From Pomacea canaliculata (Eukaryota): a DNA stretch of 64,000 nucleotides. Position 1 is the stretch's first letter; each line of letters starts with the position of its first letter. The position numbers and the translations under genes are program-made. Of the stretch, positions 1,916-40,040 are shown one piece after another. A model generated the notes under the pieces. That model made no database searches, was not told where the DNA came from, and was given only the letters and a program-made list of their open reading frames with translations. The stretch is from NCBI RefSeq assembly GCF_003073045.1, contig NC_037595.1, forward strand, positions 8,700,345-8,764,344. Direction: 5' to 3'.

Positions 1916-3239
1916 TTTTGGGCCCCAGTGTACAAGCCTGTGTGACAACGTATGAAGCCTCCAAGGCACTGGTCGAAAAAAAAAAGATTTTTTGTTTCAC
2001 GTGAAAGCGAGGACTTTTTTGTATCAGCTATTTAGCCCTTTGAATGAAGTTTCTAAAAATGATTTTACTGTACTCGTCGCGCTTATCGGTTGCCATGGAA
2101 AACAATCCAAAATGGCGCCCAAACAAACATTTTAAAAAGCTTATAACTTCGTCAATTTTGTGAGTAGACTCAAAAATTCTTTTTGAAATAGTTACCTAAA
2201 AGATAGATCTACAACCGTAGGAGAGGAATTTTGCAAAATCGGCTTGTTTTTTATATGAATTTTTTTTGTAAAACACTGTGTTAAATTTTAAGAAATTTTG
2301 ATTTAAAACGGTATAGAAGTGATCGCCCTTATTAACTAACTACAAATATTTGCACTTCTCGTGGAACGGCTGAGACTCTCAGCTGCCAGCTGCACAAAGG
2401 ACTGTTAGTGTCCGCCATAGAAGCAAACTCCGAGAAAAGCTCTTGTATGGAAGAACAGAACAGCTTTGCTATCTGCACCGATGGTAACAATTTGAGCAGG
2501 ATCTGATTCTCAACGGCCCTTTCAGTCCAAAGATAGTGAATAGTTGAACAAATGCATTGTTTACATCTGTTTCAAGATCATTGGCATCAAACAGAGGGAC
2601 TTGACTTCCTTCTGTGACCAACAATTAGTAAGGAAAGCTTCCCGCATTCTGTCAATACCTGAACATGTGCCATCAGCAGTCCAGCTGCTCAATCACTGAT
2701 GAACAGTCAGCGGTGTGTGTGTGTAGGTGTGCATAGGAATGTCTTGCCCATATCTCTCATTGCTCCTCTCTATTCCACTGCATTGTAATTGTAATGACTT
2801 ATATATATATATTGAAAACGGAGCACACTTCCCATTTAAATTGCCCATTGGGACAAATAAAGTTGGTTATTGTTATTGGTATTGGTAAATGCACTTTAAA
2901 GGAAGACCAGTTACGACGTCCTAAGTCCAAAGGGAGCCATAAAGGTTGTCGACTGCAGAGACCAATGCGTCTGTCCCAAAATACGTCAGTAAAATGTACA
3001 AAAGTACTTCCTTGGGAGGCGAAATATTCAGAAAATACATATGTAAACGGGTAGATGTCACAATAAATATAATCAATATTGTAATAATCAATATACACTC
3101 ATTTTACTCGCTTCTTCAGTAGAAATCGATCTTGGGTTCACTGGCTCTCCTCTCGTTGATATTTCCTGATCTGAAGAAAGAGTGTCCACACACATCGCTG
3201 GTCTTTACGCTGCTAATACTGAATCTCAGCTTTTTCAAG

Positions 3240-3482
3240 TTAAAGTTTGAGGGCTTCCACAGCAGTTGCCATGCGGATGTTAAGTTCAGGCATGTAATGA
3301 TCCCGAATGGTTGTGTCCTTCACCCAAGAGTCACAGCTCATGTCATAGTCGTCGAGGGCATCCCTGTAGTGGTGTAGGAGCGCCCTCTCGGGGTTAAAGG
3401 GGCGGGACTCCCAGGGATCCAGCAGCTGCTTGCTGACGTGGTGTATTCCCACTTCGAACACACGGCGAGGCATCACCATGAC
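3240..3482 (-). CDS. GT92 copy 1, last coding exon incl. stop
   Basis: Acceptor is ctaag|GTCATGGTG. Translation is VMVMPRRVFEVGIHHVSKQLLDPWESRPFNPERALLHHYRDALDDYDMSCDSWVKDTTIRDHYMPELNIRMATAVEALKL* (minus ORF 3240..3479). The eight exons sum to 1587 nt, giving 528 aa plus stop. Confidence 0.7.
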   Translation of the reverse strand, partial: VMVMPRRVFEVGIHHVSKQLLDPWESRPFNPERALLHHYRDALDDYDMSCDSWVKDTTIRDHYMPELNIRMATAVEALKL

Positions 3483-3787
3483 CTTAGTCAGAACCTAGGA
3501 TAAAGACACAAAACAACCTGCTAACACGTCTTGCAGCAAACTGGATTTTTAATACACGGACTAATATGTCTACCAGTGTTCATATTGTCATTCCATTATG
3601 CCAGGCTGCATTAGTGACAATCTGCATGCATCGTCCATTAAACTGACACTACGTAAACTCTTTTGAGTGGAAACAAGAGATGCAAAAGCCTAATGCATCC
3701 GATGCGAGGCGATTAAAAGAAGAAAAAAAAATCATAATAATCATGATAATAATAAAGTGAACGATTCAAGGAAAATGTTACACGTAC

Positions 3788-3938
3788 TATGCTAATAACC
3801 TCTGTCCTTGCTGTCGAGAAAACGGTCATGACGTCGTCGGGGAGCTGGGTAGCCACCAGAGGGTCGAAAAACGCCGACACAAAGCTGTAGCCACACGTGT
3901 CGTTTGGCAGTTCTGGCGGAATGATCTCGGAGTAAGTT
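3788..3938 (-). CDS. GT92 copy 1, coding exon 7
   Basis: Acceptor is cttcag|AACTTAC, which completes the split Arg codon. Translation is TYSEIIPPELPNDTCGYSFVSAFFDPLVATQLPDDVMTVFSTARTEVISI. Donor is ATA|GTACGT. Confidence 0.65.
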
Positions 3939-4409
3939 CTGAAGCATCCAACATACAAGTCTGACTACATGTGGAAGGAGCGAAGAACGACTTTACCTGG
4001 AGTCATTGTCGACTATCCGCTATCCAGCTAGATGCACCAAGTTTAGTCATTAGTTTGGGATCGTACAGGTACAAATGTCAAACTGACAAATACTAACGGA
4101 AGAGAATGTTGTCACAGTAAGTAAAATTTGTTCATTACTGCACAAAAACATATTGTTAACAATTACGTCAACCTGACAAGCAGAAAAGAGTATGTTTACA
4201 GTATGTTAAATGTGTTATTTATTGCACAAACGCATATTGTTAATTACGTGAAAGTGAGATGCTCAACAAACACACAGAGACAAAAGCAGAAAAATGTAAT
4301 GTCTCACACACACAAGCAATCCTGATAAACACACACCGGCACACACGCAACCGTGAACCATCGCGCCAACCTGCATGCACTCTAAAGTCGACATCGAAAT
4401 GACCCTGAC

Positions 4410-4582
4410 CTTGCATCCTTGGAGTGAGGCACGATGAACTCATCGATGTCGTGGAAAGCAGTGTAGACGGACTGCGCCATGGTGCGGTACAGACAGTCGT
4501 TGTGGACCACCAGTTGACCATGGTACCAGATGTTGCTGGACATCTCCTTCGGCATTCGCCAAGGAATAACCGTAACCCAGCG
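4410..4582 (-). CDS. GT92 copy 1, coding exon 6 (HDIDEF / DxD-like motif exon)
   Basis: Acceptor is cgtcag|CGCTGG. Translation is RWVTVIPWRMPKEMSSNIWYHGQLVVHNDCLYRTMAQSVYTAFHDIDEFIVPHSKDA. Donor is CAAG|GTCAGG, phase 2. Confidence 0.65.
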
Positions 4583-5535
4583 CTGACGCGAGAGGAACAC
4601 AACGATGCACAATGTTTACTAGAGCTTCATGATGTCTTGCAGCGCTTCGAATCCATTCACATGTCTATATGATGTTTGCATCTAACAAAATTTGTTCATT
4701 TTGTATCTAAGTTTGCTGTTGCTTGCAGAATTCGCTCCGCTATTTTGCCCTTATTTACGAGGAACATGTACTTGCTTTGAACTGGGTTAATAAAGATTCG
4801 AATGCTTTAGTACTAGTCGAATAGAAGAACACGATGGGACGATGGTTTTTGTTCCATTCATGTCTGAAGGCGCATTTGCTGAGTTAGTGGTTAGTGCTGG
4901 ATTACTGACGTCGCGGGAGTTACATTAATTATTAGGTTATTGTTATTATCTTTAGCTCTTCACTTTAGTACTAGTCGTAGGGGACACAGCTTGGGTGAAC
5001 TGATGCCAGCCGGGACGGCCATGCGCGCGCGAGAGAGAAAGTCCCCCAGTGGACAGCAGATCCATCCCTTCACGTGTTACGCAGACTTCATGGGTACGTT
5101 GTCATTGGCCGGATGAGGATAACACTGAACTTACAGATACACTCGTACACTGTTGGTTATTTAACTATTACTGCAGATTGACAGCAAACAGAGGCTACAC
5201 AAATCTTACACGTGACTTTGGTCGGTCAGCTAGACTGTCCTGGACTAGACGGTGTACTTAAAGTGGTAAAGAAATAGGAAACATGTTGTGGGTGCAAGAC
5301 CTACAAAGATTTTAAAGTGTTTTATTTTAAGCTTAAGAGTTTGCAATCTAGAACTGTAAAAGGAGACTATTTCTAAATGGATTTTGTCACTCAGATATTA
5401 TAATTGTCGGAAATGAAGGTTTTTTTTCGACTTCAGTATCTTAACCTTGCTGGAACGGAGTAAAATACAAATAAACAAACAATAAGTAACTTCCCTGTTC
5501 ACAATCAACCAATCAATCATAGGAGAGAGACTTAC

Positions 5536-5760
5536 TTTGCCTTCGTAATGCCTGAGCACCCGTCGCACTACCTTTGAGGTAGAGAAGTCGTAGAAGAAGA
5601 TCTGCTGAACACCCAGTAGCCGTGTGAGTTCCAGAAACTCCACAAGTCGCTTGGGGCTCACGGAGCCAAAGAGTGGGGAGACACAGATGCTAAAGTTGTA
5701 GGCGAACTTGTCTGTGCTGACCTGGTCGGACATCAACGGGTACAAGCTATGATGAGTAAC
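5536..5760 (-). CDS. GT92 copy 1, coding exon 5
   Basis: Acceptor is caaaag|GTTACT, chosen to keep phase 0. Translation is VTHHSLYPLMSDQVSTDKFAYNFSICVSPLFG...RRVLRHYEGK. Donor is AAA|GTAAGT, a consensus site. Confidence 0.55.
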
Positions 5761-6062
5761 CTTTTGACGGAGGGTATCGACTACGCCCCACACTCCCTCT
5801 TTACCGCCGCAGAAGGCGCATTAGATTGGATCGCTAAATAAAAGAATCAATCTTTTCAAGATGACAAGAGAAAGTAGTTCTTCTTCCTAGGATGCTTCAC
5901 TTAATAGCTTGTTTTTCTGTTTATTCATGTCTCCTCCACATACACACACTCGCAGAACAAGGTGTCAATCCCAGAAAACACTTTGTAAACGTTTATAAAA
6001 GGTTTAAGTGCTATCAGTGTTCTAAGCAAACCCAAAGTGAGAGACATAGCTACGTCACAGAC

Positions 6063-6236
6063 CTTTGACCGGAAGTGACTGTGGCGACACACGTTGTACA
6101 GGAACCGCAAAGCGTGCCTGTCGTTGCTAGATAAGTGCGACACAGTATCGCCAGCGTATAGATTAAGGTCACGTCCCAACGGCACAGAACAGGAGTAGAT
6201 GAAGCCGAGATATTCCTTACCGTGATTTTCGCACAT
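6063..6236 (-). CDS. GT92 copy 1, coding exon 4
   Basis: Acceptor is ttttccag|ATGTGCGAA. Translation is MCENHGKEYLGFIYSCSVPLGRDL...FLYNVCRHSHFRSK. The donor is weak (AAG|GTCTGT), so the 3' boundary is uncertain. Confidence 0.5.
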
Positions 6237-6546
6237 CTGGAAAATGGGATAGAAAGGAGAGTAGTCGATGAAGGCGGTCACAGGTGTTCAATGGGGTACT
6301 CATGACGGCACTTACACGTCAAAGACGAGTGTGGGTAAAGAGATGGGCGCGCACATCTCCATTGCATCAAAGATAGGATGAAGATTTTACAGAAGTCTGA
6401 GTAAAAATGGTCGTTTGAGTATGTAAAAATTGTTGGAGATAAGTGTGTGTTTACAAAGTAGTATGCGTCTGGCGTTCGTTACAAGTACTCACGAGAGTAG
6501 CGCTCCTGAACAAGCAAAGACAATAACATTTTACACATGCGCGCAC

Positions 6547-6666
6547 CTCATATTGTGCAGCCTCCGTTGTGTAGACGCCATTGTTTTCTCCGTAATCGAA
6601 GTGGCACAGCAGTCCCGCTTTGTTGGTGGAGTTGAGATGTATAATCACCATCATTCGCACCCACAC
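6547..6666 (-). CDS. GT92 copy 1, coding exon 3
   Basis: Acceptor is tatttcag|GTGTGG. Translation is VWVRMMVIIHLNSTNKAGLLCHFDYGENNGVYTTEAAQYE. Donor is GAG|GTGCGC, phase 0. Confidence 0.6.
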
Positions 6667-7479
6667 CTGAAATACCGTAAAAGAAGTCTAAATCAGTAGG
6701 TCTTGTCGTGAAATGCCGTGTGTTGAATCAATATTCATTAGGTTTTGTCATTAAATACGGGTTAAGAGATCATGAAGCGAAGTCGCTGTTCCGTGGAAGT
6801 TACAGGTAAGCGTCTTGACTACCACGGGACTGTAATTGATGCAGCAGCGACGAGTTTTTGTCCCCCTCGATCAATCTAATTTACCTCTTTGTTTTTTCTA
6901 GTTAGCTGCTGTTGTCCTTTCTCTCTCTTGGAATTGAGGACTATATGTAAAAGAACAAAAACTTTGTTTTTTTTTTCTGTTTGTTTTACCCTCGTCATTG
7001 TTATTCCTTCTAATGATCAGAACACTTTTGATGTACAGTCTCAAGTTTTCTTGTATTTAAATCCTACATTAAAGAGGCTTTGATGAATTCCTAAATTATG
7101 CACCGTAACATCATCTTTGAACGAAACTTTTGCTGGTAATTCCATTACCTGTTCTCACTGAAATGAACACTCATTACTCTTTTATTTTTAACTCCTGTTG
7201 CATTATTATTTTAAGAAATGGTTTAAAGAGATTTTTTTTCTACCGATTATAACTACCCTTTTCTTAAATGTGCATCGATCCTGCATTTAAAATATTATGC
7301 TGTATATTAATTTGATTTTTCCCACTTTTTTTTTAAAGTGATTGACCTTTCACTTTTCTGACGTGACAGTTCTGGACGGGCGAAGAGCTGTCATTGCAAT
7401 GTTTTGTTCTGTAATGTTTGTTGATCTTCATGAAATAAAAATTTAATTGAAAAAATATCCCCTCGGTACCGTTCTAGAT

Positions 7480-7610
7480 CATGGGCGAATTGTTTTACTT
7501 TCAATGGGCCGACTGGGTGAACGTTTTCTGCGCTACACGAATATCAAAGCGCTTGACCTTTAGTGCTCTAACCACTCGGCCCTTCGCTTCCCTTTAGCGC
7601 TTGTTATACC
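7480..7610 (-). repeat. tRNA-derived SINE-like element in intron 2 of GT92 copy 1 (ortholog of 19935-20110)
   Basis: Minus strand reads GCGAAGGGCCGAGTGGTTAGAGCACTAAAGGTCAAGCGCTTTGATATTCGTGTAGCG. It sits at the homologous position in both duplication units, so it predates the duplication. Confidence 0.5.
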
Positions 7611-7786
7611 CACCCCTTAATCAATCTCTTCTAACGGTGTAAAACAAATTTAAGTCAAATTTAAGAGTCATTCACTCAACTTGATCATGGCAATGAGGTC
7701 GAAGTTTGCAACATACATTGCGCTTCGTTTTTCCCCACCGCTCTCTCTCACTTCTCCTCTCCTCCCCACCATACACAACCGCTCAC

Positions 7787-8104
7787 CTTGTCCTGGCGGT
7801 CGTCGTGGTAGGCGGAGAAGACAGCCAGGCCGTCCATGACCCTAATTAAAGTGCTTTTGCTATAGTCTAGCGCTTTCTTCTTTTTCTTCTTCACGGCCGA
7901 CAGCATGTCCTGCGACTGCAAGCGGTCTCCAGCGGCGGTGGTGTTGTCTCTGTCAATCCTCATGATGTCGTCGACCAGGCGAAGGCTTGTCCCATTTTGG
8001 ATTATATCCACTGTCGAGATGATGTCGAACACCTGCCTCTCTAACTGCAGTATCCCTTCCTCTAGGCCCTGTAGTTTCACGCGTGTGTCTTCTACGCTTG
8101 GCAC
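7787..8104 (-). CDS. GT92 copy 1, coding exon 2
   Basis: Acceptor is cctgccag|GTGCCAAGC, phase 0. Translation runs VPSVEDTRVKLQ...LAVFSAYHDDRQDK. Donor is AAG|GTGAGC. It sits within minus ORF 7748..8104. Confidence 0.6.
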
Positions 8105-8789
8105 CTGGCAGGAAGGTAGGTAACATCAATCCGGAAAGGTACTCTCGTGACTTTACCGTTGTTGCGGTATGGGGTGTGCTAGAGATACCCGGAGCCAGGC
8201 GCTGAGGGGATCCGGGGACTGGGGCAAATAGAATTCTGGGGCCTTTGGAAGCCCGCAAAGCATTCATAGAAGGGCACTAACTTATTACGGACTGTCTCAT
8301 CCCGACGCTGCACTTTGCGGGGCGAAATGCGGTCCCCCCATGCTCACATCTTCCCCCCCCCCCATCTACTTTAGCGCAGGTGTCACGGTCTGCAACTTAA
8401 CCCGAAAAGTACCTTTATTTCCACAGTGCGCAGGCGCATGGGTCAACAGATGATGCATACGCAAACCGTGTAAAAGGGGAATATACAGTGAGAGGAGCGT
8501 GAGCACGAGAAGAGGTTTTGCTCATGTGCTAGGACAGAATGTCTTTAACAACATTATCAATTGTGGAAGATTCGCGGATCAAAGACGTGTCGATTGTAAA
8601 AGTAAGTGTTACACAAAACTACAAGCTACGGTCATATGACGGACATGACCTCTTAACTCCTGCGCCTGCGCACTGAGAAGTAAAGTTGCTTCTCGTGTAA
8701 CACTCAACCTTTTTTTCGCCGCGATGGCCGCACTGAACATGATAAAAAATCTCGTTCAGAACACGGTGGATTTTTCCAGAACCATGACG

Positions 8790-9050
8790 TTTAAAATTAA
8801 ATTATGTTGTGTCTTGTTAAAGTGAGTGGGCTGGATGAGGCACCCGCGCAGGCCGTACGTTGGGCACCCTGGCTTAGCCTTTGTGAAGTTCTCCGCTGTT
8901 AGGCTCGGCGAGCCGAAACAATGAATGTGACTAAACCGGATGCTTTGTATATTATACACCAGCCCCGTTTTAGTAGTAAACTAGAAAAAAATGTCTGCCA
9001 GCAGTCATGTAATACAAGTTCGTTGTGACCAGGGCCGTGCTTAGGGGCAG
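8790..9050 (+). repeat. Interspersed repeat family 1 (SINE/MITE-like), copy A
   Basis: Shares ...cttgcgaagttctccgctgt(t/c)...ctcggcgagcc.aaacaa..aatgtgactaaaccgga.gctttgta...acaccagcc.cgttttagtagt...aaaaaaatgtctgccagcagtc.tgtaatacaagttcgt with copies at 38330 and 52770. The three copies give pseudo-ORFs with the shared peptide FRFSHI.C.GSP.LT.ENF. Confidence 0.6.
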
Positions 9051-9693
9051 GCGGACGAGGCATCTGTCTAGGGCCCCGCGCTTCAAGGGGCCCCGCGCTT
9101 TTGATTGATATGTGACTTTAGATCCCAACTAAAACCGTGTGATCGTGGCGTGAGGGCCCCGCACATGCCCTTTGCCTCGGGGCCCCGCGGGGGCTAAGAA
9201 CTGGCCTGGTTGTGACACCTCCTCTGCAGTACCCATCTTCACTCTCTCACTGTCGTACCCTCTAAAACTGTCCAAGCTAAGTTGCTGTGAAAAGGAAAAC
9301 GGAAAGGTAGTCTTATGACCTGAGGGCTGTCACAAGGTAAAACAGGGAAATCAAGGGTAAACTTTTTGACTCCATAGTGGGCTTTAGTAGCATTTAGACT
9401 CTACACATGCAGCCTTACCCATGGGTCAAGTTCTAAAACAGTGGCAAATATGCCCTGGGATAGAATAACATAAAGTAATATTTGTGAATTCTTGACAGTG
9501 CGTCGTACTTACAGAGACAAGAAGCTTAATCTTCATTTCTCCATTCAGGCAGCAACTTACCCTTGCTTCATGAATACTGTCTAAGATATATATATAATGC
9601 ATTACTACACGCCACACAAATATATGTGTGTGAGACTGATGTTGGACTGGTTATTGTACCTTTAGCCTGATTGAAACATTTTCGTGCTCTTAC

Positions 9694-9876
9694 TGATCGA
9701 ATAGTGTTGTTGGTAGCGGCTTCTTCATCTGAGTCGCTGTAAACGATAATGACGGGCAACTTGCTGTTGACGCTACTGCTGCTGCTGCTGAGCCGTGAGA
9801 GCGATTGAAAGAAGAGGACTACCCCGGTGACGTATATGGCGAAGAAGAGCATGATGGCACGCAAACCCCGAGCCAT
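9694..9876 (-). CDS. GT92 (DUF23) glycosyltransferase copy 1, coding exon 1 (start codon, signal-anchor, poly-Ser stem)
   Basis: ATG at 9874-9876. Translation is MARGLRAIMLFFAIYVTGVVLFFQSL... The hydrophobic N-terminus is typical of a type II Golgi glycosyltransferase. Donor is TCA|GTAAGA at 9693. A good acceptor (ttttccatgcag) lies immediately 5' of the ATG, suggesting an upstream non-coding exon. Confidence 0.6.
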
Positions 9877-10689
9877 AGTCACACCGCACCTGCATGGAAA
9901 ATCTCACACAGTCAAATGACTCGCAGAAGAGGCCCTTTAAGAAAAGTACAGTCGGACATTTTTTCCCTATATCTTTTTCCCGCACAGATTGAGCCAGTAG
10001 CACTGATAGATTAGTAATCAGCGCTTTTACAATTAGATTAAAATAGTTTAGAAGGGGATAGAAGGATTGGTAATATCGCACTTATCTGCTTTTTGCGTTG
10101 AGAGTAGGGAGTGAGAAGGAAACATGTATCCATCAAAGACTGTGCAAAACTACAAGTAAAGCGAGTATGGGACAGATGATTTTTACAGGTAACACAGTGT
10201 AAAGGTGGTACTATTTCGATAAAACTTTTAGGTAGTGAGAGTGTAAGGATTTGGAATCACTGACCATACTTGCAGGTAGCATGGTAAAAAGAGTGTAAAG
10301 GTATTATATATCTGATCATGCCTACAGGTAAAGATGTTGTGAATCTGAGACTTACGTGAAGGTAAAGATTGGGGCAGATGGTGATGGTGCACAATGTCAC
10401 TTCTCTGCTGGGAACCTTTCACCTCAGCTTCCTGGGAGGTGTACAGCCATGATTACCTGCAACAAAGTGCAGGATTATTCTACAGATAATAGATGCACAC
10501 GGGGAATACACGCAAACATTTATAGTGATTTACAATCATCAGAGAGCACTCTTTCTAATGATATAAGTCACACTTATCTAGGTGTAAAGTTTAAAAATCG
10601 TTGGGTTTTGCAGGTTAAAGGCGACACACGCTGAAACACCCAGCATCAGAATCAGCAGACACGCAGACTAAAGATGACACACGCTTAAC

Positions 10690-10745
10690 GATAATACTTT
10701 GAACGATCTCGTCCGTGCTCTAACTGCCCCTTCGCCTCACATGCT
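10690..10745 (-). repeat. Fragment of the same tRNA-related SINE family
   Basis: gaacgatctcgtccgtgctctaactgccccttcgcctc resembles tttgaacgccagtgctctaacaactcggctatccc at 20055. Confidence 0.35.
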
Positions 10746-12590
10746 GAGGTGATCTGCTCTCCTTGATATTGTTTATGTTTTGTTGTCGTGGTTCGATTTG
10801 GATAAAAATGTTGGACCTTCATGTTTACACGTGCTTTATCTGAGTTTTCTTTCTCTTCTGGTTTGCAACAGGATGTTATATAATGTTATTTTAAAGGGCC
10901 AACTGTTTATATCTATTGGCCTGATTCCATTCCGCCCGCTTCACTCGTTTCGGCAGCGACCTTGAGGTACATTGAATAAACTGAAGTGATGATCACCTTT
11001 TTGCAGTTTCATGTGATAACATTTCTTCAAGATTTATAAATAACCTCCAAGTATTTTCCTGATGTTACTAACCTTATTCTCTGGAGTCGTTACCGTAAAA
11101 TCTACAGTTTTCTTGTTCAGCGGAATACGTTCTCCTTTGGCTGAGATTTTGTGGTTTATAAATTAATTCCCACTTATTATTATTATTACCTGCATTATAG
11201 CTAGGAGCTTGTCATCCGTACTGTTCTTAGCTACTACAAATAAAAATCAAGAAACAGTTGCCTTTCTAGCATGCTGTCTTTCGCCCCGAACATTCTAAAC
11301 TGTGAGACTTAACCTTAGTCACACTACACAATCACTAGAAAGATCTAGAACTGCAGCGAGATCTAGCGCGGTTTTTTTCTTAAATGAAAATAAAGTCTGG
11401 CCCCTTCTTCTGATTGGCCACCTGGATCACATGGCTTAATCTCGTATCTAGATCGAGGCTGATGCCCGTCTGCTACGCTCCCTGAAAAAAGATTGTCTTC
11501 TGCTCAGTTAGAACAGCAGTTTGGGGCACATTTATTAATTAGCCTTTGCTGCGTGTGTTTGACGGTGGAGATATTTTTGAGGTGCTGGTAACGGTATAAA
11601 TTTTAAGGATATCAGTTGCCCCGCGTAGCTTTGACAGGTCGTTAGTACACAGGGAGTTAATCCAATCCTCAACACACTCAATACTTCTCTCCCTTTAGTC
11701 GTTTTCGACGTAGCAGATACGGACGACGGTTTGATAAAAGCCAGGTGTTCGTCTGTTTTTGTCTTGTTCCTAAACAGCTTTAAGTGCGAAATAAACATAT
11801 ATTCTAGCGCTTTTCCATAAAATCAGAATCTTGATAATCATCCACTCCCCTGCTCGGCAGAACTTTAGTGGCTACTAACTGTATGAGCAGGTGGTGGGGA
11901 TCAGAAGGGGCACGAAACAGTAGTTTGTGTGAGGAAGGTCGCGGAGGAGCAGTGCTGCTGGATTTGCATTCTGATGGCGTGAAATTGTTAGGGTTTGAAT
12001 GAACTTCCGTTGAGAATTTTGTTTGGAAAACTTTTCTGTTATTAAATCGTCAAAATAAATTTCATCATATTGTGTCCGACCATACATATGCTATTTAGAT
12101 GGACAAAATTTTTCTCAAGAGGCAAAATATCACAAAAGTAGGAGTAATGTTTTTTTTTTAACCCGCTTTTCCAACCAGGAGAAAGATGTATCAAGCTGTT
12201 TTTTCCAGGGTTTTTTTCTTTTCACTGCTGTCTATTTCGCATCTGTATTTTTGCTCCTTTTTTCACAACTTTTATTATATGCAAGCACATGTATAACGTG
12301 ACCACATGTACAGAACAAAGCCAAAGCACAATGTATCACAAATATTTATTTTGTTGTCAGAATATGCACGAAGTTTATCGTCTCTTGAGATCAACAAATT
12401 TTATATTTTGCAAATCCACACTTCCTTCGAGTTTAGAGACAATACCTGGCTCCCCCCTGAAGAGTTTGATTAATTAAAACGCTGTTAATCACTGTATATT
12501 TGAGAAACAAAGTGATAAACTGTTAACAAACATAACCATATTAAATTCAACACAATTATGCAGTTCCAACCTCTCACAAGCAAGACGTTT

Positions 12591-14370
12591 TGAGTTGTGG
12601 GGAATGTGGAAATAACTTTCACTCAGTTTACAATTCAGCTTTCGTTTAGTCTTCCACTCAAAAACACTTGTTGGAATGTTTGAGAAAATAACAAAAGAAA
12701 AATCCAGGTAGGATATGACACCATTGAACTTGACGATACCATCTGGAATGTTCCTTAAAATCAGTCAAAGAGTTTGGTGACATACCTGAAAAAGGTTTTT
12801 AAGCTCTGGAATGGCTTGGGAATATGTACTGAATATTTTACTTTCATAAAACCATAGGAAATAATTAGCGCTAGGGCCACAACGCATTACAAAAAATATC
12901 CAGCCTGTGATAACCACTTCTCGAGATAGGAATATCCTGTGTAACATTAAGTAACAGTAGAGTGCCAAGCATTAGGAATGAAAGAATTCGCCGCAAGTAG
13001 CAACATAAACACACAAGTGTTTCCATTAGATAAAAAAAAACTAATAACATTATTCTGTTCCATCAGTTTCAAATGTCTGACATGAAAGTTAAAGGAATGT
13101 TGATGTAGGGCTTCACAGCAAGCGTCGCTGTCCAAGTGACCCACAGGCCGAGGGAGTAGAATAGAACAGGTTAAAGACGTAAGTGGAATGTGTTCAAACA
13201 GTCGGGTGGGTCAAAGACCAGGGATAAGGTGTCGAACTCTCTTTGAATCTCACATACAATATCTTTTTTTAAAATACTTGATTTCTGAAGAACTTTACAT
13301 TCTGCCGGTAAAAGCTGAATATAAAAGAATGGCTTAAGATCGAGGGCCTTATCATCATATGATGAATTTTACCACTTGGCTGATTATATTTTTGGTCCGG
13401 AGATGGCATAAACTATCACATTTATGCATTCAGTTCTTTAATATTCACCTCGATTATACAACGACAGACACGACTGCATGACAATCTGGCTCAGTTTTTA
13501 GCTTTACAATTTCTGAGAACCAATGGATTATTTTGGAGAGTAAAAAAGAAGCTCTGCTTGTACGCGAAAATCAGGCAACACAACGAAACAACGGTGTAAA
13601 CTAAAACAGGACATTCAGTATGCCAACAGAAAAGGGGAAAAAACAGCTTTAATGTCTATAGCAAAGATGGGAAAATAAATACTCTTGAATGTCGATAGTT
13701 GACTAGCACCTTTGCGTGCCTTGAAGTTTCAACAGAAATTGCTTTCTACCCATATTGGGCAAGGTAGGAACTGTTTGTCAATGCTACCAAAGTCTACTAT
13801 AGCAGTGATTTCTCGTGATGGAAGAACTGTCAGTCGCATTCACAGCACGTGTCTGACCAAACATGGAAGGACAAGCGCGGGTACAAGACACTGATGACGA
13901 GAACGATGTTTGCAGTAAATCAAAAGCGTCGGGTGGCATGGAGGATGGGGCTACTAGCGGAGGCAAGCAAATATCAACACCATGCCTCCCTTTAGAAGCA
14001 ATGTCACGGAACCTTGTCCTCTCCTGTATCACAATTTAACCAGATCTAGTCATGTGACCCGGGAAGCTAAAAGTCTAGTCACAACCTGGACACGGAAGAA
14101 GTAACATGGAACAGGGAAGATGACCATATGACCATAGATTACACTCACAGCTGCTGTCCAGCTGAGACTTGGCATACAGACGGTATAAAATTAAAATAAA
14201 GTCAGAATCCGTGTGATTCTGTGTACAGTTCCAGCTGCTTTGTAAAACTCTTGTTAATCATGAAGAACCTGTACAGAAAAGGATTAAAACAAAGAACAAG
14301 ACAATATTCTGGTTTAAAGGAATAAATATCAGATAATTATAATATATCCATTGTTTGATCACATTTGTAT
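12591..14370. other. 1.8-kb indel specific to duplication unit 2 (insertion relative to unit 1 position ~490)
   Basis: Unit 1 reads caagcaagacgtttgacaatttgcatacaggaaatggcaagtgg continuously. Unit 2 has about 1.78 kb between acgttttgag and tattgacaattcgcttacaggaaatggcaagtgg. Possible TTGA(C) target duplication. No TIR or ORF was recognised. Confidence 0.5.
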
Positions 14371-17300
14371 TGACAATTCGCTTACAGGAAATGGCAAGTG
14401 GAAGAACAGGGTAGGCTTAAATGATAGATAATGATGTTTTGAATAAAGATTTCATTAAGGAAAAATTAATTTCTTTGAAATCCAACATCATGAGTAAAAA
14501 CTTCACAAAATGCTTATCTTTTAAGTCCAACACGACATTTCACTTGCATTTTCATTTAACACTGACTAGACTGAAAATGAGTTTCAGGATGTTGAATGAA
14601 AACATCGAAAACATGGAGAAAAACTAGACAAGAAACGCAGATGGAAGCAGAAAGATAACCAAAGTTCATTCACACCGTCCCTCAGTGATGCCAAACAGAG
14701 AGCAGAAGACTGTGGAAATATTAGTCCTCGTATATCTTACATTTTGTGAAAACATCTACTAACTTCAATGTTTACGATTGAAGTCATTGATTAAATAATG
14801 TCAATGTTCAAACTGTGTTTAAAGATTAACAAATCCTAATAAGAATGAAGTTTTGTGGTATGTGCATCTTCATTGTTAATATAACAATGTCAATCATACC
14901 TCAATCATTGGAATTCTGTAACATAATCTTCAAGCAAAATGACGGCTCAAAAGGACAAAGCATATTCTGTACCGGCGAGAATTTTGACTGACATCACAAT
15001 GAGCCCTTTACGGGCTTGTGAAAGTCAGAGAGAGGTAAAAGACACAAAACCACTACTGTCCATTGACGGAATGCCAATGTGAAGACAGTTGAAATGCCAA
15101 TGCTTATGCAGATACAATGCTATACAAAAAAACTTAGATCTGCGGCCGCCAAAAATCTATTATAAATAATAATTATATTAAACACATTGTAAAGAATTAT
15201 AAATATTAGTGGGAGTTCTGTTGTCAGGCCGTTTGTTGCTCCAAACATTTGCACAACAAAAAGCGAACACCTGGAAGCTCAGACATTTCAAACCGCGCTG
15301 TTCGTTTCTCTTTAACAAGAGAATGACAATCATTCCCCCTAAACATAAGTGACCCAAAATGTTCTTGCTAACACACACACAAACACAGAGAAAATATATT
15401 GCATTGGAGCAAGCACACCGTATTTGGCTCACGGAAAGCATTCGGCACAGATCGTGGACGAACAGCTCCGTCCGATCCCTGCCGACGAACAAAATGCACT
15501 TTAAAGGAAGACCAGTGGCGACGTCCAAAGTCCATAGGAGCCTTAAAGGTTCTCGACTGCAGAGACCCAAGTGTCTGTCTCAAAGCAAGTCAGTAAAATG
15601 TACAATTCGCTGATTCCTTTCAGTTGACTATTTCCTTGTGAGGCGAAATATTCAGAAAATACATCTGTAGACTGGAAGATGTCGGAGCAAATATAATTAT
15701 TATTGTAATAATCAATATTAGCTCATTTTACTTGCTTCTTCAGTAGAAATCGATCTTGGGTTCACTGACTCTCCGCTCGTTGACGATATTTCCTGATCTC
15801 GAAGAAAGACTGTCCACACACATCGCTGGTTTTACGCTGTTAATACTGAATCTCAGCTTTTTCAGGTTAAAGTTTGAGGGCTTCCACAGCAGTTGCCATT
15901 CGGATCTTAAGTTCAGGCATGTAATGATCCCGAATGGTTGTGTCCTTCACCCAGAGTCACAGCGCATGCCATAGTCGTCGAGGCACTCCCTGTAGTGGTG
16001 CAGGAGCGCCCTCTCGGGGCTAAAGGGGCGGGACTCCCAGGGCTCCAGCAGCTGCTTGCTGACGTGGTGTATTCCCACTTCGAACACACGCGAGGCATCA
16101 CCATGACCTTAGTCCTAACCTGGAAAAAAGACACAAAACTTGCAACACACTGGGTTTTTCTTACACACCGACTAATATGTCTACCAGTGTTCATATTGTC
16201 ATTCCAATAATGCCAGACTGCATTAGTGACAATCTGCATTCATCGTCCATTAAACTGATTGTACGGGCACTCACTGAGTGGAAACAAGAGATGCAAAAGC
16301 CTCTTGCATCCGATGCGAGGCGGTTAAAAGAAGACGAGGAAACAATAACAGCAGTAATAATAAAAGACTAATTATTATTTTACAATAATTATTATTATAA
16401 AGCGAACGATTCAAGGAAAATGTTACACGTACTTTGCTAATGGCCTCTGACCTAGCTGTCGAGAAAACGGTCATGAGGTCGTCGGGGAACTGGGTGGCCA
16501 CCCCAGCGTCGAAAAACGCCGACGCGAAGCTGTAGCCACACGTGTCGTTTGGCAGTTCAGGCGGAATGATGTCGGAGTAAATTCTGAAGCATCCAACAAA
16601 TTAAGTCTGACTACATGTGGAAGATTGACTTTACATGGCATCATGGTTGGCAATCCTTCTATCCAGCATTTACACAGACCAAATAGGTATGATTATGTTA
16701 AACTAGTAGTTACACAACCGAATGTTGCTAGTATTAAGTCGTTTATTATTTATTACACAAAAATCAAATAGTTAACATTACATCAAACTGTTAATACACA
16801 CACATTGAGGTGTACCATCCTGAAAACCTTCATGAATTCCTCGGTGGACACAATTTGTTTTACCAAAATGACCCTGACCTTGCATCTTTGGAGTGAGGCA
16901 CGATGAACTCATCGATGTCGTGGAAAGCAGTGTAGACGGACTGCGCCATGGTGCGGTACAGACAGTCGTTGTTGACCACCAGTTGACCATTGTACCAGAT
17001 GTTGCTGGACATCTTCTCCGGCATTCGCCAAGGAATAACCGTAACCCAGCGCTGACGGTGAGAGGAACAAAACGATGGACTGTATACTATTGCTTCATAA
17101 TGTCTTCATACTCAGTTCCATGACTATAATATTCTCTTTGCATCGAATAGAATTTGGTGTTTAACAGTAGTGCGCATTTAGCAGAATGTTATCTTTAGCT
17201 CATTGTTAGCATTGTTGTCATCGGTCATACGAGAACTACTAAACGTAGAGGTCCCTTCTCTTATATTGCTGGTGCCATTCAACTATTATTATTTTGTCGT

Positions 17301-18545
17301 GGGAGAAAATTTATTTCTAGTTATCCATGCGAAGAAATTTGATTGTCTGACAGCAAACAGAAGTTATACAAATCTTACATGAGTTCGGTCGGCCAGCTAG
17401 ACTGACCTGGTCTGGACAGTGTAATTTTAAGTGGTAAGGAAATGGGAAACAAGCTGTGGGTGCAAGGTCTGGAAAGGATTTTGAATATTTTATTCTGAAT
17501 GTTAAAAGCTTGCATTCAAAGTCTTCTATAAATGACAATTTCTTTGTGAATGGAGCTCTCTAGATTCTGTCACTCAGGTGTTATTTAATTTCCGGAATTG
17601 ATCGCTTTCTTTCAGTCCCAGTAACTTTCCTTTTCACAAACATTTAAACCAGCAAGGGAAAAGGACAATGTGATGAAGTAAATGACGAATGCGATGAATT
17701 TTACACTTCAACACACTTCACGGCTGATGTATAGGCAGTGTATTGATCAGACTTCTTGCCCTCCACATATTTGCTGCTCCATCTGACAGAAAGGCGGACA
17801 CGATGACTTCGCAGATGAGAAAGATTTTCCTCGAGAGAGTGTGACGCACAATTCATCCATCCATCAATAAATTCTAGGGAATTATAACACCGAGACTTAC
17901 TATTGCCCTCGTAATGCCTGAGCACCCGTTGCACTACCTCTGAGGTGGAGAAGTCGTAGAAGAAGATCTGCTGAACACCCAGTAGCCGTGTGAGTTCCAG
18001 AAACTCCACAAGTCGCTTGGGGCTCACGGAGCCAAAGAGTGGGGAGACACAGATGCTAAAGTTGTAGGCGAACTTGTCTGTGCTGACCTGGACGGACACC
18101 AACGGGTACAAGCCATGATGAGTAACCTTTTGACGGAGGGGTATCGAGTATCCTCCTCTTTACTGCCGCAAAAGGACGCATTCGATCAGATCGTTAAATA
18201 AAAAAACAATCTTTCCAAAATGATGAGAAAAGCAGTTCTTCTTCCCAGAATGCTTCATAGTATCTGTTGTTTGTGGTTATTTATCTGTCTCTTTCACACA
18301 AAAACATACAGAGGAGTCAATGCTAAGCGAACACAAAAACACAGAAATATGCTACGTCACAGACCTTTTGACCGGAAGTGACTGGTGGCGACACACGTTG
18401 TACAGGAACCGGAACTTGCCTGTCGTTGCTAGACACGTGCGACACCGCCAGCGTGTAGTCCAGGTGGCGCCCCAACGGCACAGAGCAGGAGTAGATGAAG
18501 CCGAGATATGTCTTCTTGTGATTCTCGCACATCTGCAACATCGAT

Positions 18546-18585
18546 GTGAAATGAGTGAGTGGTGAGTGGGTGAGTGGGTGAGTGA
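18546..18585. repeat. (CACTCAC/GTGAGTG)n microsatellite abutting exon 4 acceptor of copy 2
   Basis: gtgagtgagtggtgagtgggtgagtgggtgagtg. The homologous copy 1 position has unique sequence. Confidence 0.8.
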
Positions 18586-18814
18586 AGGAAGTCACAGGTC
18601 TTAATACGTCACTTAATGACGTCTCTCTGATGTCATGGACAAGACTGCGTAACTGAGATTGGCGCGCGCGTCTCGCTTTTGTTGAATACACTTTGAAGAG
18701 TCCATAGTGAAAAAGTATTAAAAAACATTGTGGAGATACTGGGTTGTTATTTTGTTTCGTGCTCGAGAACTCCAATAGACGTACTCACGACAGTAGTGTT
18801 GTCGAAGGAAGTAA

Positions 18815-19090
18815 AACAACCAACCAACCAACCAACCAATCAACCAACCAACCAACCAACCAAACAAACAAACAAAGAAGCAAACAAACAAACAAGCAAG
18901 CAAATCAACAAATAACAAAAACCAAAAAACCCAACAAAAAACAAAAACAAACCCCCCAAAAAAACAAAAACCTAAAAACCCAACAAAACTCCGAGATTTA
19001 AAAAAAATCCCAACAAAAAAAACAAACAAAAATCAAAACCCAAAACAAAAAACAAAACCAAAAACAAAAAAAACAAACAACAAAACTCCG
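18815..19090. repeat. (CCAA)n/(CAAA)n compound microsatellite, ~280 bp, in intron 3 of copy 2 only
   Basis: Direct reading gives ccaaccaaccaacc...caaacaaacaaacaa... It is absent from the homologous copy 1 intron (6237-6546). Confidence 0.9.
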
Positions 19091-19934
19091 AATTAAAAAT
19101 GTTAATCCTGCACGCCCTCTTGCAAGCACGCGCACCTCATACTGTTTAGCCTCGATGATGTAGGTGGCGGTGTTGTCACCGTTGTAGTGGAAGTGGCAGA
19201 GCAGTCGCTGGCTGTTGACATTTCCGTGTATAATCACCATTATACGCACCCACACCTGAAATACCGTAAAAGAAGTCTAATACTAGATATCAATACAATT
19301 TTAGCGTTTGTTTTCCATCGGTTACCTAATGTTGGCCACGGGTAGTGACTTACCTTTGCTTTATTGTCACGGACCCCTTGCAACTTACAGACGACAAGTG
19401 TCTGTTGAATGTATGGGATAATGAACGAGAACATTAGATGGGAAAGTGTTAACTGTGACGGTATCGTGTAAAAACAGATTTCGTAAGGTATCTGTTGTGA
19501 ACTGCCACAAAAGCAGTCAGAATCTTCAGTTCCTTAATGGCTAAGGTAAAAGAAAGGTCGTGCCCTAATTTTTTTTTCTTTGGTCGTTTATTCCTTCATT
19601 CGTCCCTTGACCGGTATCTGTCGTTGCGTGAGCAAATGGATAGACGACAAATAGATGACAAAGCCCGCCACTCATGCCTGTCTGGGGCGATGATTAGTGG
19701 GTCCTGCACACGACGGTCAGTCCACTACTTCACGTTCACCTTTGGCCACCGCGGTCTCGACCTCCCTCCAAAGCATCTTTGGGCTGACCTTAGCGTTTCA
19801 TCATCGAGTACAACGAGAATGTCTTTTTTCATTACTGCCTTTGTGACCTTATTTAAGTGGGGGTGAAATTCCTCATTTCGAGAGTGTAAGTTATAAAGAC
19901 ATGAGTGTAAAGCTGATGAGGGTTTCGAACCCTT

Positions 19935-20110
19935 CACATCCTCGTGTATTGCATCCGCACCATTTTCCAGAGCTTATGGCCCTCGTCGTTTCCACAGTAT
20001 TTACTCCCTTTGACACCAGGTATCGAACCTGCGCGCCTCTCGGTTTGAACGCCAGTGCTCTAACAACTCGGCTATCCCTCTTTAGCACGTTCACAACCCC
20101 ACTCCCCATC
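19935..20110 (-). repeat. tRNA-derived SINE-like element in intron 2 of GT92 copy 2
   Basis: Minus strand reads GGATAGCCGAGTTGTTAGAGCACTGGCGTTCAAACCGAGAGGCGCGCAGGTTCGATACCTGG. This has an A-box-like GCCGAGTTGTTAGAGC and a B-box-like GGTTCGATACC. A second T-arm-like unit GGGTTCGAAACCC lies at 19921-19935. Too degenerate to call a functional tRNA. Confidence 0.5.
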
Positions 20111-20167
20111 TTTAAAGCAAACAAAATTAAGTATCAAAAGAGTCATACACGCAAACACAGCTTGTTC

Positions 20168-20201
20168 TTTGTTTGTTTGTTTGTTTGTTTTTTTTTTTTT
20201 T
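20168..20201. repeat. (TTTG)n + poly-T
   Basis: ctttgtttgtttgtttgtttgttttttttttttttt. Confidence 0.9.
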
Positions 20202-23200
20202 CACCTCCCCCTCACCCGAGTCCCACACAATACCCGACCTCTCACCTCCTCCTGACGGTCGTCGTGGTAGGCGGAGAAGACAGCCAGGCCCTCGCTGACC
20301 CTGATGAGGGTGCTGTTGGTGTAGTCCAGAGCTTCCTCTTCCTCCTCCTTTTTCAAGGCGGACAACACGCCCTGCGGCTGCGACTGGGCTCCAGCGGCGG
20401 CGCTGCTGCTTAGCTCCCTTTGTTGGTGCGGCCCACGCGTCTTGAGAGCGTCGAGCAGGCGGGCGCGCTTCTCACCCAGGGCTCGCTCTGCTAGTGAGAT
20501 CTTCATGTCGAACACCTGCTTCTCCAGCTGCACCATCCCCACCTCTAGTTTTGCAGCCGCTTGTGCACATCCACCGCGCTTCGCAGCTGGATGACAGGTT
20601 TAAAAAAAAAATGGGAAAGGTCATCTCGTGACCTTACGGTTGTTGGGTTATGGTACTGACGCCATTTCTCACAGAGAAAATATTTTTTCGAGGCGACACT
20701 TATCTTGTCTCATTTGGTCATACACTTCCAAACATTTCAAGTTGAGTTTTAGACAAGGTTTTTTTTTGTTGTAAAAATGGAAAGGTAGTCATCGTGACGT
20801 GAGGTTAAGTCATTGTATCAGTGTAAAACATAGATATCAAGGGTAAACGTTTTGTCTCCATAGTTATATCTAGACTACACGGATACCTTCACCCCTGGGG
20901 TTATAGTTTTAAAGCAGTGGTAACGATGCCACATAACATAATGAAAGATCTGTAGGTTTGTGAAAATGCGTCAAATTTTACAAAGACAAGTTTTTTTCCT
21001 AAATTTGTCAACTTTGGCCTCCGATCAACAACTTACCGTTGCTTCATAAATACGACTCCAGATATATCACAGAACAAGGCAGGACGAACGAAAGAACATA
21101 GAACAGAAATGAGGGTCGGATGAAAATCCTTTACCCGGTCTTACCCATCGAATGGTGTCGTTGGCGGCGTCGTCTTCAGCTGGGTCGTTGTCGCGGACCA
21201 TGACGGGGATCTTGCGGTCATCGACGGCGGTGCTGCTGCTGGAGGGGGACAGCGACTGATGGAAGAGCACGAGCACGATGGCGTACACGACGCAGAGGAG
21301 CATGAGGGCCCGCGAGCAACGAGCCATGGCCACGCCGCCCCTGCTCAGAGAAACACCAATAATATTGTCACATGATTGATAGAAGAAACCACACTTCAGC
21401 CAAGTCTACTTTCAAACTGAATCACTGATTGTGGAAAAGAGACCGGCTGTCGGCGATCAGACACACCTGAATGAGCGGTGTCTTGTTGTCCCCATCCATC
21501 ACACCTTGTCGGACAAACTTATCTATTTTTGTGACTCACATCGTGTTTATATATGCTACTATTTCTGTCACTGGTAGTGAATGCACTTTAGGTCGATCAC
21601 TTTTACAACACTTGTTCTCCGACCCCTTCCTTCCCCTGTGAACAGACTGAAATTTGTGACCTTTAACCCTAAATATCTCTTTAACAAATTTGTTTTAAGG
21701 GTACATTTGAATGACTAAATAAATATATATCGCTGTTTATAATTTGTTTTGTTTTATCAATGCCTTGATGTTTCTTCTCGATTCTTTATTTCTATCCAGT
21801 AACCTTTATTTTTAAGAGAGAGACCATCGTAAGCAATAGATTATTTCAAGACATTTTGTTTTAAAAGAATACTTTCTCGCAATGTTTTGAGTAAATCGTT
21901 ATAATAATCGTTTATAATCGACGTTTTCCTCCCGACTCTCACCTTCTGTTACCTTGGTCGAACCTGAAACTACATTTATTGACACTTCATGCCACATGCT
22001 TTTCAAAAACGGCGAAAAAAAAAATTAAAATTAATTTTACGACACCTGACCCACATGAGGGGGTCGAACTTTAAGGCACATGTTTCTATATAAAAAGTGA
22101 TTACAGCAGAATATACTTTTTATAGACATGAAAATATTGCGGTATTTGCTACACTTTGTAAACCTTGTCAGAGAGTTTTAGTCAACCTCACCTGTCCAGG
22201 AGTTATCGACCCTTGTTTTGTCGAAAATCCACCTTTTCGTACTTCCTACGTTTAGGAGATTTTTTTTTTCTAGCATCGGCATACGAACTCCGGCTTTTCC
22301 CCTTTATATCTCCTCCTTTCCCCGGGATGTTCTTTGGAGACTAAAACTGTTATCTTTGTTATCTGCCTATCGTTGCTCCAACTTTCTAGTCCAGCCAGGG
22401 TGACTGTCGCCTCCTGATACCTTTTATCATTAGAGAACCACAGCTGTCGTTTCCAAGGTAACTACGTTAACTTGTGTATCAAGTTTCTATCTCACATCAA
22501 CGTAGTATTCACACCATGTGTGCAACTTCAATATTTAACACTTGACATCAGACGATCATCGATGCAGTAGACCACCACCCCTAGCCTTAAGTCCATTCCT
22601 GATGAAACTTTCCCAACCTACTCTTTCCAGCTTTAGGTGCTCTTCCTTGATGACAAGAGGTAACATGTGAACAATGATGCTTGATGATGTGATAAAGTGC
22701 ACATCATCGGAACAAGCTCTAAGAAATGTACATAAAAAGTGATGAGAAACACAGAGGACATGTAAACATGTGATGCTTGATAATACGATACAGCATGCAT
22801 TTGCGAAATAAAATAGGAAATGTTCTGATCAAAAACAAAACAAAGCGAGGAAAACAGCAAAAGTCATGTTAAGATGATAAGGCTTGATATTGCAGTTTTA
22901 TGAGCTGGTAAAAATGTAACAGCAAATCAACAGAAGAGCCAAGAAAAGTGGAGAAATATTACGAAAGAATCACAAAATAAGACATAAAAAATTCCGAAAT
23001 ATGGGGACAATGTTACAGAAGCATGAAAACAAAGTTACATAAACATGACCTGAGAAATAAGTTACAGGTAGACCCGTGGTACGTCACTGCGAAGGGAGAT
23101 AATAAAAACCTTTCGGGGCCAGCTTGTTGAATGGAGGGGGATGCCACTCCCCTTCTCCACAGAAACAGAAACATAGAAATATTGTACAGCCATCGACTAC

Positions 23201-24314
23201 GAGTGTACACATAACGGTACGCCTACCCAGCTTCAAAGCCGGCGCCTTTCAACTCTGATGGTGTGGAGGGGGAGGGGAGGGATCAAAGAGGTGGACCGTC
23301 TCTCATTAAAGCAAGAAGGTCACGATGGTTTAAAACACACACACACACAGAGAACACATCATACATCTACCCTCTGATGTGGAGGAAATAATTTTCCCTT
23401 CATTGCTTTTGTTATTCAATGACAATATCATTTGCTCGTTCAACGTTACTGAGCTCTTCACAGTGATGTGATTTATCTCCCAATAAATAAGAAGATGCTA
23501 GAATCCTGTGTCAGGGAGATTGGTGAACTCAGTAAGAAGGGTGAAGATGGATGTCGACGTGCTTTTAGCGAATCAGGACATGGTCAACCGACAAGAAGTG
23601 ATCATTAAGTCCAGTACTGCCGGACAGACCTTGCTGTTTATAAATCAAGGTTGATAGATATACATGCTGGGGTATCTACACTTAGAACTATCGTCAACAG
23701 ACGTTTATTAAATTTTGTTGAAATTTGTCAGAGACCTGACATCTTGGAGAAATCAGTGGGTCCCAAACTAAAAAGTTCGAAGCTTACTGAGTCAGGTAGC
23801 ACAGTACGAAGGTGGTACCTATCCGACCTCACCTTCAGATAAGGAGTGTACCAGGCTGAGGGCTGTACAAGCAGGTAAAAAGAGTGTAAAGGTGTGTACC
23901 TGATCATACCTACAGGTGAGCGTATCGTGAAGCTGAGACTTGCGATGGCAGATGGTGATGTGAGGTCACCTGTCCGCTCACAACCTTTGACCTGCTTATT
24001 GGGACGTGTACAGCCGCTCTCACCTGCAACAAAGTGCACGGATATTGTAAAGATTCTCACATGGAGAATACACATAAATACATATATGAATACATACATT
24101 CACGTAAAACATAATCACACACACACTCATAATGTACACCACACGAATAAACACATACAGACATGACTACATCAATGCAGCATCTGAACACAAAAGCATA
24201 AGGAATCGAGATTATCTGTACAAGGTGTAGTCCTTAATCTTAGTTTAACTTACGGAGGAAATGGTGAGTGTTGAAGGAATGGGAAAAACGAAAAATAGAG
24301 AATAACCTTTCTGC

Positions 24315-24375
24315 AAAAAAAAAAACAAAAAAAAAAAAACAAACAAAACAAACAAACAAAAAACCCCAAAAGACA

Positions 24376-24413
<38 letters not shown>

Positions 24414-24447
24414 AAAAAGAAACCCCCAAAACAATAAAAAAACAACC
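24315..24447. repeat. A-rich (CAAA)n low-complexity tract
   Basis: aaaaacaaaaaaaaaaaaacaaacaaaacaaacaaacaaa... directly read. Confidence 0.9.
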
Positions 24448-35768: not shown

Positions 35769-35791
35769 AGTCAGCCAGTCTCCTTCATGTA

Positions 35792-35888
<97 letters not shown>

Positions 35889-35892
35889 GTGT
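35769..35892. repeat. (TGTGTA)n hexanucleotide microsatellite (~20 units)
   Basis: tgtatgtgtatgtgtatgtg... directly read. Confidence 0.95.
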
Positions 35893-39924: not shown

Positions 39925-40040
39925 TCACCACTCTGTCCCAGTGCACCGGCTGAACCAGCCAGTCACCCTTCTTGGACAATTGTACCGGCTGAACCAGCCA
40001 CTCACCCTGCTTGGACATTTGTACCGGTTGAACCAGCCAG
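39925..40040. repeat. ~45-bp tandem repeat x2.5
   Basis: Unit ccggctgaaccagccagtcacccttcttggacaattgta, then ccggctgaaccagccactcaccctgcttggacatttgta, then ccggttgaaccagccagttgac. Confidence 0.8.

Follow-up and report, generated by a model that had tools for sequence, protein, structure and literature searches.

The 64-kb window, by which we mean the whole stretch of DNA that was analysed, belongs to the reference assembly of Pomacea canaliculata, the golden apple snail, and carries two glycosyltransferase genes of the GT92 family, copy 1 and copy 2, both on the minus strand; all coordinates are positions in this window. Our overall reading, to which we give a probability of about 0.68, is that copy 2 is a conserved gene with mis-assembled frameshifts and that copy 1 is an older, faster-evolving paralog that is losing function. 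Copy 2 would then be an expressed and functional paralog, its four frameshifts of one nucleotide (nt) being most likely residual consensus errors of the long reads, and copy 1 would keep an open path but be losing its activity. The headline of the first-pass annotation, which held copy 1 to be intact and copy 2 to be decaying, is probably inverted. When the window is compared with itself, a tandem duplication emerges whose period is 12.1-12.6 kb, copy 1 occupying about 1-10500 and copy 2 about 12009-24086, and exon alignment places eight coding exons in each unit, so that the tandem pair of minus-strand, eight-exon genes described earlier is borne out.

The reference for the mRNA is a Logan contig of 3183 nt from the run SRR23441711 (L001), which encodes a protein of 532 amino acids (aa) that was the top database match (P0001). 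Since the contig aligns to copy 2 as nine intron-less blocks, with 98.5-100% identity, or 99.4-100% once the intron overhang is removed, it is read as the spliced mRNA of copy 2 or of a copy 2 allele. Its open reading frame (ORF) of 532 aa is intact and differs from the window by 7 substitutions across 1.6 kb of coding sequence. In its 5' untranslated region (UTR) exon (contig positions 1-103, window 24023-23899), two segments of 9-12 nt that both window copies have are missing from the contig; these are derived deletions in the mRNA haplotype, and the sample therefore differs from the reference as a haplotype, a population or a close species. Against this mRNA, copy 2 of the window has four lesions, each 1 nt long and each derived when copy 1 is taken as outgroup. 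The first-pass annotation was right that four such frameshifts are present in the sequence, and had placed them closely:

20547..20548, minus strand: lesion 1, exon 2, T missing; the mRNA reads AAAACTTAGAGG and the window AAAAC-TAGAGG, and copy 1 has C
17901..17903, minus strand: lesion 2, before the exon 5 donor, extra T at 17902; the window reads GGCAA(T)A/GTAAGT, the mRNA and copy 1 GGCAAA/GTAAGT (the slash marks the exon boundary, here and below)
16090..16091, minus strand: lesion 3, exon 8, A missing, not within a homopolymer; the mRNA reads CCTCGACGTG and the window CCTCG-CGTG, and copy 1 has C
15954..15955, minus strand: lesion 4, exon 8, C missing; the mRNA reads GACTCCTGG, the window GACT-CTGG and copy 1 GACTCTTGG

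The lesions have passed into the public gene models. When copy 2 is spliced and translated from the ATG used by RefSeq, the product is XP_025097291.1 (320 aa), residue for residue. Lesion 1 accounts for the out-of-frame peptide AAKRGGCAQAAAK in exon 2 of GenBank PVD28320.1 and RefSeq XP_025097291, and the extra T at 17902 for the frameshifted tail of XP_025097291.1, in which exon 6 is read out of frame.

The frameshifts could be real in the sequenced animal, where a null allele or a young pseudogene would segregate beside the intact allele represented by the mRNA. We regard this as unlikely, although it does not lack support: the reference sequence carries the four indels, as do the models of GenBank and RefSeq, heterozygosity in this genome is 1-2% (PMC6129957), natural 1-nt indels occur in the UTR on both lineages, and the RefSeq models are disrupted for all three paralogs (the third lies outside the window), as they would be in a decaying cluster. 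A precedent is also offered by nematodes, in which loss-of-function alleles of a GT92 gene are reported to be adaptive in some cases (PMC13520123). Four frameshifts, however, need long neutral evolution, and the copy 2 allele still looks constrained, so that there was too little neutral time for four independent events. Its lineage in the window has 4 derived changes in the coding sequence, of which 3 are synonymous and 1 non-synonymous, against 12.9 expected if it had been neutral since the split from the mRNA contig (1.6% UTR divergence; P=0.004). The test for relaxed constraint on this lineage came out against it, both by this count and by the residues that were kept. Conservation was scored on 119 homologs, with 80 columns at least 85% conserved, and the protein of copy 2 keeps 39 of 39 invariant columns, including D385, D387, E388, H466, H467, H489, H490, R450 and C494; its splice sites are likewise all intact.

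The placement of the lesions bears on the same question. All three coding deletions, and thus three of the four indels, fall exactly on bases at which copy 1 differs from the mRNA, as does the one polarisable UTR deletion (15539); the bases in the mRNA and copy 1 are T/C, A/C, C/T and A/T. From the per-exon chances, the joint probability for the coding deletions is 0.465 x 0.078 x 0.078 = 0.003, and it falls to 0.0007 when the UTR site is included. There is no reason why mutation should single out paralog-variant bases, and the coincidence points to an error of consensus or polishing. The assembly was built from PacBio reads with smartdenovo and corrected in one Pilon v1.16 run set to 'fix bases' (PMC6129957). 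We infer that a polisher facing mixed pile-ups, caused by paralogous mis-mapping or heterozygosity, would leave raw long-read errors at such bases, and that the single Pilon round probably failed at the copy 2 indels, where the short-read pile-up would be ambiguous at paralog-variant or heterozygous positions. On this comparison of sequences we consider it likely that the copy 2 frameshifts are a consensus or polishing artefact. The description of copy 2 as caught during pseudogenisation does not agree with its match to an intact expressed mRNA, its invariant residues, its constrained substitutions or the position of its deletions. The fallback offered with that description, assembly errors in a collapsed tandem repeat, holds for the errors, which are favoured here, and fails for the repeat: a literal collapse was rejected, both units being resolved and their 5' halves strongly diverged.

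Copy 1 presents the opposite picture. It has an open path, as was claimed, with a length of 519 codons from MARGL when the splice sites homologous to those of the mRNA are used, rather than the 528 aa given before. The features by which it departs from copy 2 are as follows:

3491-3489, minus strand: copy 1 codon CTG, Arg to Leu in VRTK; the codon is AGG in copy 2 (16116-14), and Arg is also found in the third paralog
3359-3357, minus strand: copy 1 codon GCC, Cys to Ala in HHYRxC; copy 2 has TGC at 15985-83
6063..6116, minus strand: segment of copy 1 exon 4 out of the ancestral frame, indels +2, -1 and -1
10310..10311, minus strand: donor of the copy 1 5' exon, AT and not GT, ATGATCAG/ATATAT; copy 2 has ATGATCAG/GTACAC, with GT at 23899-23898
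5801..5835, minus strand: cryptic acceptor of copy 1, TTTTATTTAG/CGATCC, with AG at 5835-5834 and the exon starting at 5833; copy 2 has AA

At two columns, the Arg and the Cys listed above, 119 of 119 homologs agree and only copy 1 departs from them; both residues are kept by copy 2 and by the third paralog. Exon 4 holds five indels (+1 and +5 further upstream, then +2, -1 and -1) with a net effect of +6, and the peptide HALRFLYNVCRHSHFRSK stands in place of the motif VPVPVQRVSPP that is common to copy 2 and four other caenogastropods. In relative-rate tests by the method of Tajima on the N-terminal half, with caenogastropod outgroups, the unique changes were always more numerous in copy 1 (19 vs 1, 32 vs 12 and 11 vs 3), with chi-squared values of 16.2, 9.1 and 4.6. 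An AT-AC intron of the U12 class was considered for the altered 5' donor and rejected, as ATATAT is without the ATATCC consensus. Taken from its sequence, copy 1 is a GT92 member by descent whose function is probably impaired.

The cryptic acceptor also explains how copy 1 is annotated. Splicing to 5833 reaches a TAA (5803-5801) after 10 codons, and RefSeq uses this junction for its 275-aa model, therefore giving the two halves of copy 1 as separate products: an N-terminal half of 275 aa without the GT92 domain and a C-terminal half of 258/254 aa without the signal anchor. Translation of copy 1 exons 1-4 with the alternative acceptor reproduces XP_025097741.1 (275 aa) exactly, and that of the 3' half reproduces XP_025097305.1 and XP_025097306.1 (258/254 aa) exactly.

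These features could also be read as those of a working gene, in which case both copies and the third paralog would be functional, the oddities of copy 1 would be neofunctionalisation or artefacts of assembly or annotation, and the RefSeq split would be an annotation artefact. The open path of 519 codons has canonical splice sites, the shifted stretches of exon 4 are without a stop, the family's DxD and His motifs are retained as DIDEF and HH, the ratio of non-synonymous to synonymous divergence (dN/dS) is 0.4-0.7 in exons 1-4 and so below 1, and two RefSeq isoforms of the 3' half suggest that copy 1 is transcribed. Yet the Arg and Cys lost by copy 1 are kept by both other paralogs, the strong upstream acceptor that leads to a stop is found only in copy 1, the donor of its 5' exon is lost and its protein rate is significantly accelerated, and we hold it improbable that all three genes are functional. 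The compensation in exon 4 together with the dN/dS suggests that selection acted on copy 1 during much of its past, and 'recently impaired or diverging' fits it better than 'long-dead pseudogene'.

Some points weigh against the reading of a conserved copy 2 and a failing copy 1. The artefact case is built on the assembly, the mRNA contig and the paralog comparison. The extra T at 17902 coincides with no paralog-variant base. Indels of 1 nt number 4 in 1600 nt of coding sequence vs 3 in 1490 nt of 3' UTR, the ratio of indels to substitutions does not differ significantly between them (Fisher P=0.09), and the UTR indels are derived on both lineages. The sample behind SRR23441711 could come from another population or a sister species with an intact copy 2, the reference animal being null. 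On the side of copy 1, support by RNA-seq for the cryptic junction is drawn from the RefSeq model, the ORF is still open, and the indels of exon 4 cancel out exactly, as if selection had held the frame until recently. It also seems to us unlikely that the reference snail has a null allele at the only well-conserved GT92 paralog, with an intact allele expressed in other animals.

The junctions of copy 2 were set by the mRNA contig, and its introns are all GT-AG. The units and exons of the two genes are:

14368..24023, minus strand: copy 2 transcription unit, conserved GT92 paralog, from the exon-by-exon alignment of the mRNA contig
3240..10322, minus strand: copy 1 gene, exons by homology to copy 2
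24023-23900, minus strand: 5' exon (e0) of copy 2, in-frame ATG at 23907-23905; copy 1 has a remnant ending at 10312
21340-21145, minus strand: exon 1 of copy 2, ATG of MARCS at 21327; copy 1 9889-9694, ATG at 9876
20586-20246, minus strand: exon 2 of copy 2; copy 1 8104-7787
19255-19136, minus strand: exon 3 of copy 2; copy 1 6666-6547
18532-18365, minus strand: exon 4 of copy 2; copy 1 6236-6063
18087-17901, minus strand: exon 5 of copy 2; copy 1 5721-5536
17051-16879, minus strand: exon 6 of copy 2; copy 1 4582-4410
16583-16433, minus strand: exon 7 of copy 2; copy 1 3938-3788, with an alternative donor after 3800
16119-15867, minus strand: coding part of exon 8 of copy 2; copy 1 3494-3240
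14368 at least, minus strand: lower limit reached by the 3' UTR of copy 2, 1.5 kb long, from the mRNA contig

The structure proposed earlier therefore stands in its eight coding exons per gene and has to be extended by an upstream 5' exon with an in-frame ATG (about 24023-23900 in copy 2). The change from GT to GC reported for the exon 7 donor of copy 2 rested on a misplaced donor, as the mRNA contig puts the end of the exon 12 nt further on. Both copies have a canonical donor at exon 7 (AGCAAA/GTACGT in copy 2, AGCATA/GTACGT in copy 1). The upstream site, ACAGAG/GTTATT in copy 1 and with GC in copy 2, lies 12 nt upstream of the true donor and is no more than an alternative donor of copy 1, which RefSeq isoform X2 uses. 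Beyond the coding exons, the copy 1 stretch 760-2887 corresponds to 14779-15492 in the middle of the copy 2 3' UTR; it is about 1.4 kb longer and unalignable, and may be an insertion or a replacement, possibly by a mobile element.

The figure of about 90% overall identity between the copies is imprecise, because it masks a mosaic. Exons 1-4 are 72-85% identical, with a synonymous divergence (dS) of 0.49-0.89, or about 0.5-0.9, and the introns of the 5' half are barely alignable. Exons 5-6 (4410-5721 vs 16879-18087) are 97-98% identical with a dS of 0.02-0.03, whereas their flanking introns are far more diverged, and exons 7-8 have a dS of about 0.1. This pattern fits an old duplication in which gene conversion, in one event or several, homogenised the 3' half, and exons 5-6 look like a recent conversion tract within it; it does not fit the recent duplication proposed by the first-pass annotation.

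A third GT92 paralog lies outside the window, on a 31.5-Mb scaffold of P. canaliculata, on which the RefSeq proteins of both copies are also recorded. Its N-terminal half (XP_025097308, P0125) is nearer to copy 1, with 78% identity, and in the reference has a frameshift near the start of exon 4; the C-terminal half (XP_025097309, P0123) has an annotation of its own and no longer has the ancestral stop (EAL----EKAEIQY). In GenBank PVD28320.1, a chimeric model, exons 1-4 of copy 2 are fused to exons 5-8 of the third paralog. In RefSeq, the snail proteins are named 'beta-1,4-galactosyltransferase galt-1-like', those of copy 2 being XP_025097291-294.

In the rest of the window, from 24100 to 64000, we found neither tRNAs, Rfam RNAs nor any convincing long ORFs that would code for protein, and thus no further genes by which to gauge the indel error rate of the assembly. 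A repeat of about 250 nt occurs at 38344-38595 and 52743-52991, 14 kb apart, in inverted orientation and with 85.7% identity, and contains an internal duplication of 57-58 nt; a partial copy lies at 8873-9023, where it sits in the first intron of copy 1 and has no counterpart in copy 2. The repeat is probably either a short interspersed element or one resembling a miniature inverted-repeat transposable element (MITE). Arrays rich in A and C, of the type (CAAA)n/(AAAC)n, are found at 18814-19088 in intron 3 of copy 2, at 24255-24463 just upstream of its 5' exon, and 5 kb further on at 29157-29375. The region 24100-64000 also holds the perfect microsatellite (TGTATG)17.7 at 35788-35893, a perfect 20-nt unit repeated 2.9 times at 42663-42720, and a minisatellite with a 39-nt unit at 39921-40041.

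The locus itself is an ordinary one, already annotated (though badly) and of a well-known family, and its value is mainly one of curation: all three paralogs are truncated, split or chimeric in public records, and the 532-aa product of copy 2 can be recovered from the mRNA contig. The combination found in copy 2, frameshifts at paralog-variant bases together with otherwise purifying selection, can be reused as a diagnostic of polishing failure rather than pseudogenisation. In biological terms, the locus would be an ordinary lineage-specific expansion of GT92 in a mollusc, with one conservative copy beside diverging copies and a mosaic left by gene conversion. If the null allele were real, a loss-of-function polymorphism would be segregating in an enzyme that modifies glycans in a highly invasive snail, within a three-gene cluster under birth-and-death evolution with gene conversion, and it might be maintained by pressure from pathogens or parasites on a surface glycan, as is reported for a GT92 gene of Caenorhabditis.

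The family assignment is firm. The copy 1 protein matches the Pfam profile Glyco_transf_92 (PF01697) with E=3.3e-36 and 125.6 bits (cut-off 23) over profile positions 2-238 of 249, and the same domain is carried by 120 of the 120 homologs listed. Also present are the HDIDEF block, the LLCHFDYG block, a signal anchor and a Ser-rich stem, and the closest relatives are mollusc proteins named 'beta-1,4-galactosyltransferase galt-1-like', those of caenogastropods being nearest. In the AlphaFold model of the copy 2 product (predicted local distance difference test, pLDDT, 83), a transmembrane helix at the N-terminus is followed by a long stem of coiled coil and then by a beta-sandwich domain and a GT-A domain. 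The model's top Foldseek match in the PDB is poplar GalS1 (8D3T, E=7e-20; 8D3T/8D3Z E about 1e-19 over about 410 aligned columns), a match that was weak when sequence alone was searched against the PDB (E=3e-4) and that the fold search confirmed. The Pfam match, the caenogastropod relatives and the match of the AlphaFold model to GalS1 therefore confirm the family and the type II architecture, and the earlier call of a GT92/DUF23 type II membrane glycosyltransferase, to which the motifs also speak, was correct. Each unit would encode a type II protein of the Golgi kind, with a signal anchor, a coiled-coil stem, a beta-sandwich domain like a carbohydrate-binding module (CBM) and a GT-A domain with a D-I-D-E-F metal site. 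Family membership leads one to expect that an active enzyme resides in the Golgi, depends on Mn2+, has an inverting mechanism and takes UDP-galactose as its donor, and from its relatives in sequence we infer that the snail protein belongs to the GALT-1 type of UDP-galactose beta-1,4-galactosyltransferase.

The characterised members of GT92 are GALT-1 of C. elegans, which adds beta-1,4-galactose to the core alpha-1,6-fucose, and the galactan synthases of plants; to our knowledge, GalS1 is the only solved structure of the family. C. elegans GALT-1, the founding animal member, shares with the snail genes the PF01697/GT92 family and the type II topology, and is likened to them by family and naming. 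The GalS1 of Populus trichocarpa (8D3T/8D3Z) is matched by the predicted fold of copy 2 over the beta-sandwich and GT-A domains, with a template modelling score (TM-score) of 0.68 normalised to the target; the identity, however, is just 14-15%, and GalS1 is a synthase of plant cell-wall polysaccharide, not an animal enzyme that modifies glycoproteins. The public P. canaliculata models at the locus (XP_025097291-294, XP_025097741, XP_025097305/306 and PVD28320.1) come from the same DNA as the window. They are cut down or split to 320, 275 and 258/254 aa or, in PVD28320.1, chimeric, and the full-length 532-aa product of the mRNA contig is absent from all of those listed. The galt-1-like proteins of the caenogastropods Babylonia areolata (P0003), Nucella lapillus (P0004) and Littorina saxatilis (P0005) have 49-58% identity to copy 2 and share with it the linker motif VPVPVQxVSP and all invariant residues, whereas copy 1 has lost the motif and two of these residues.

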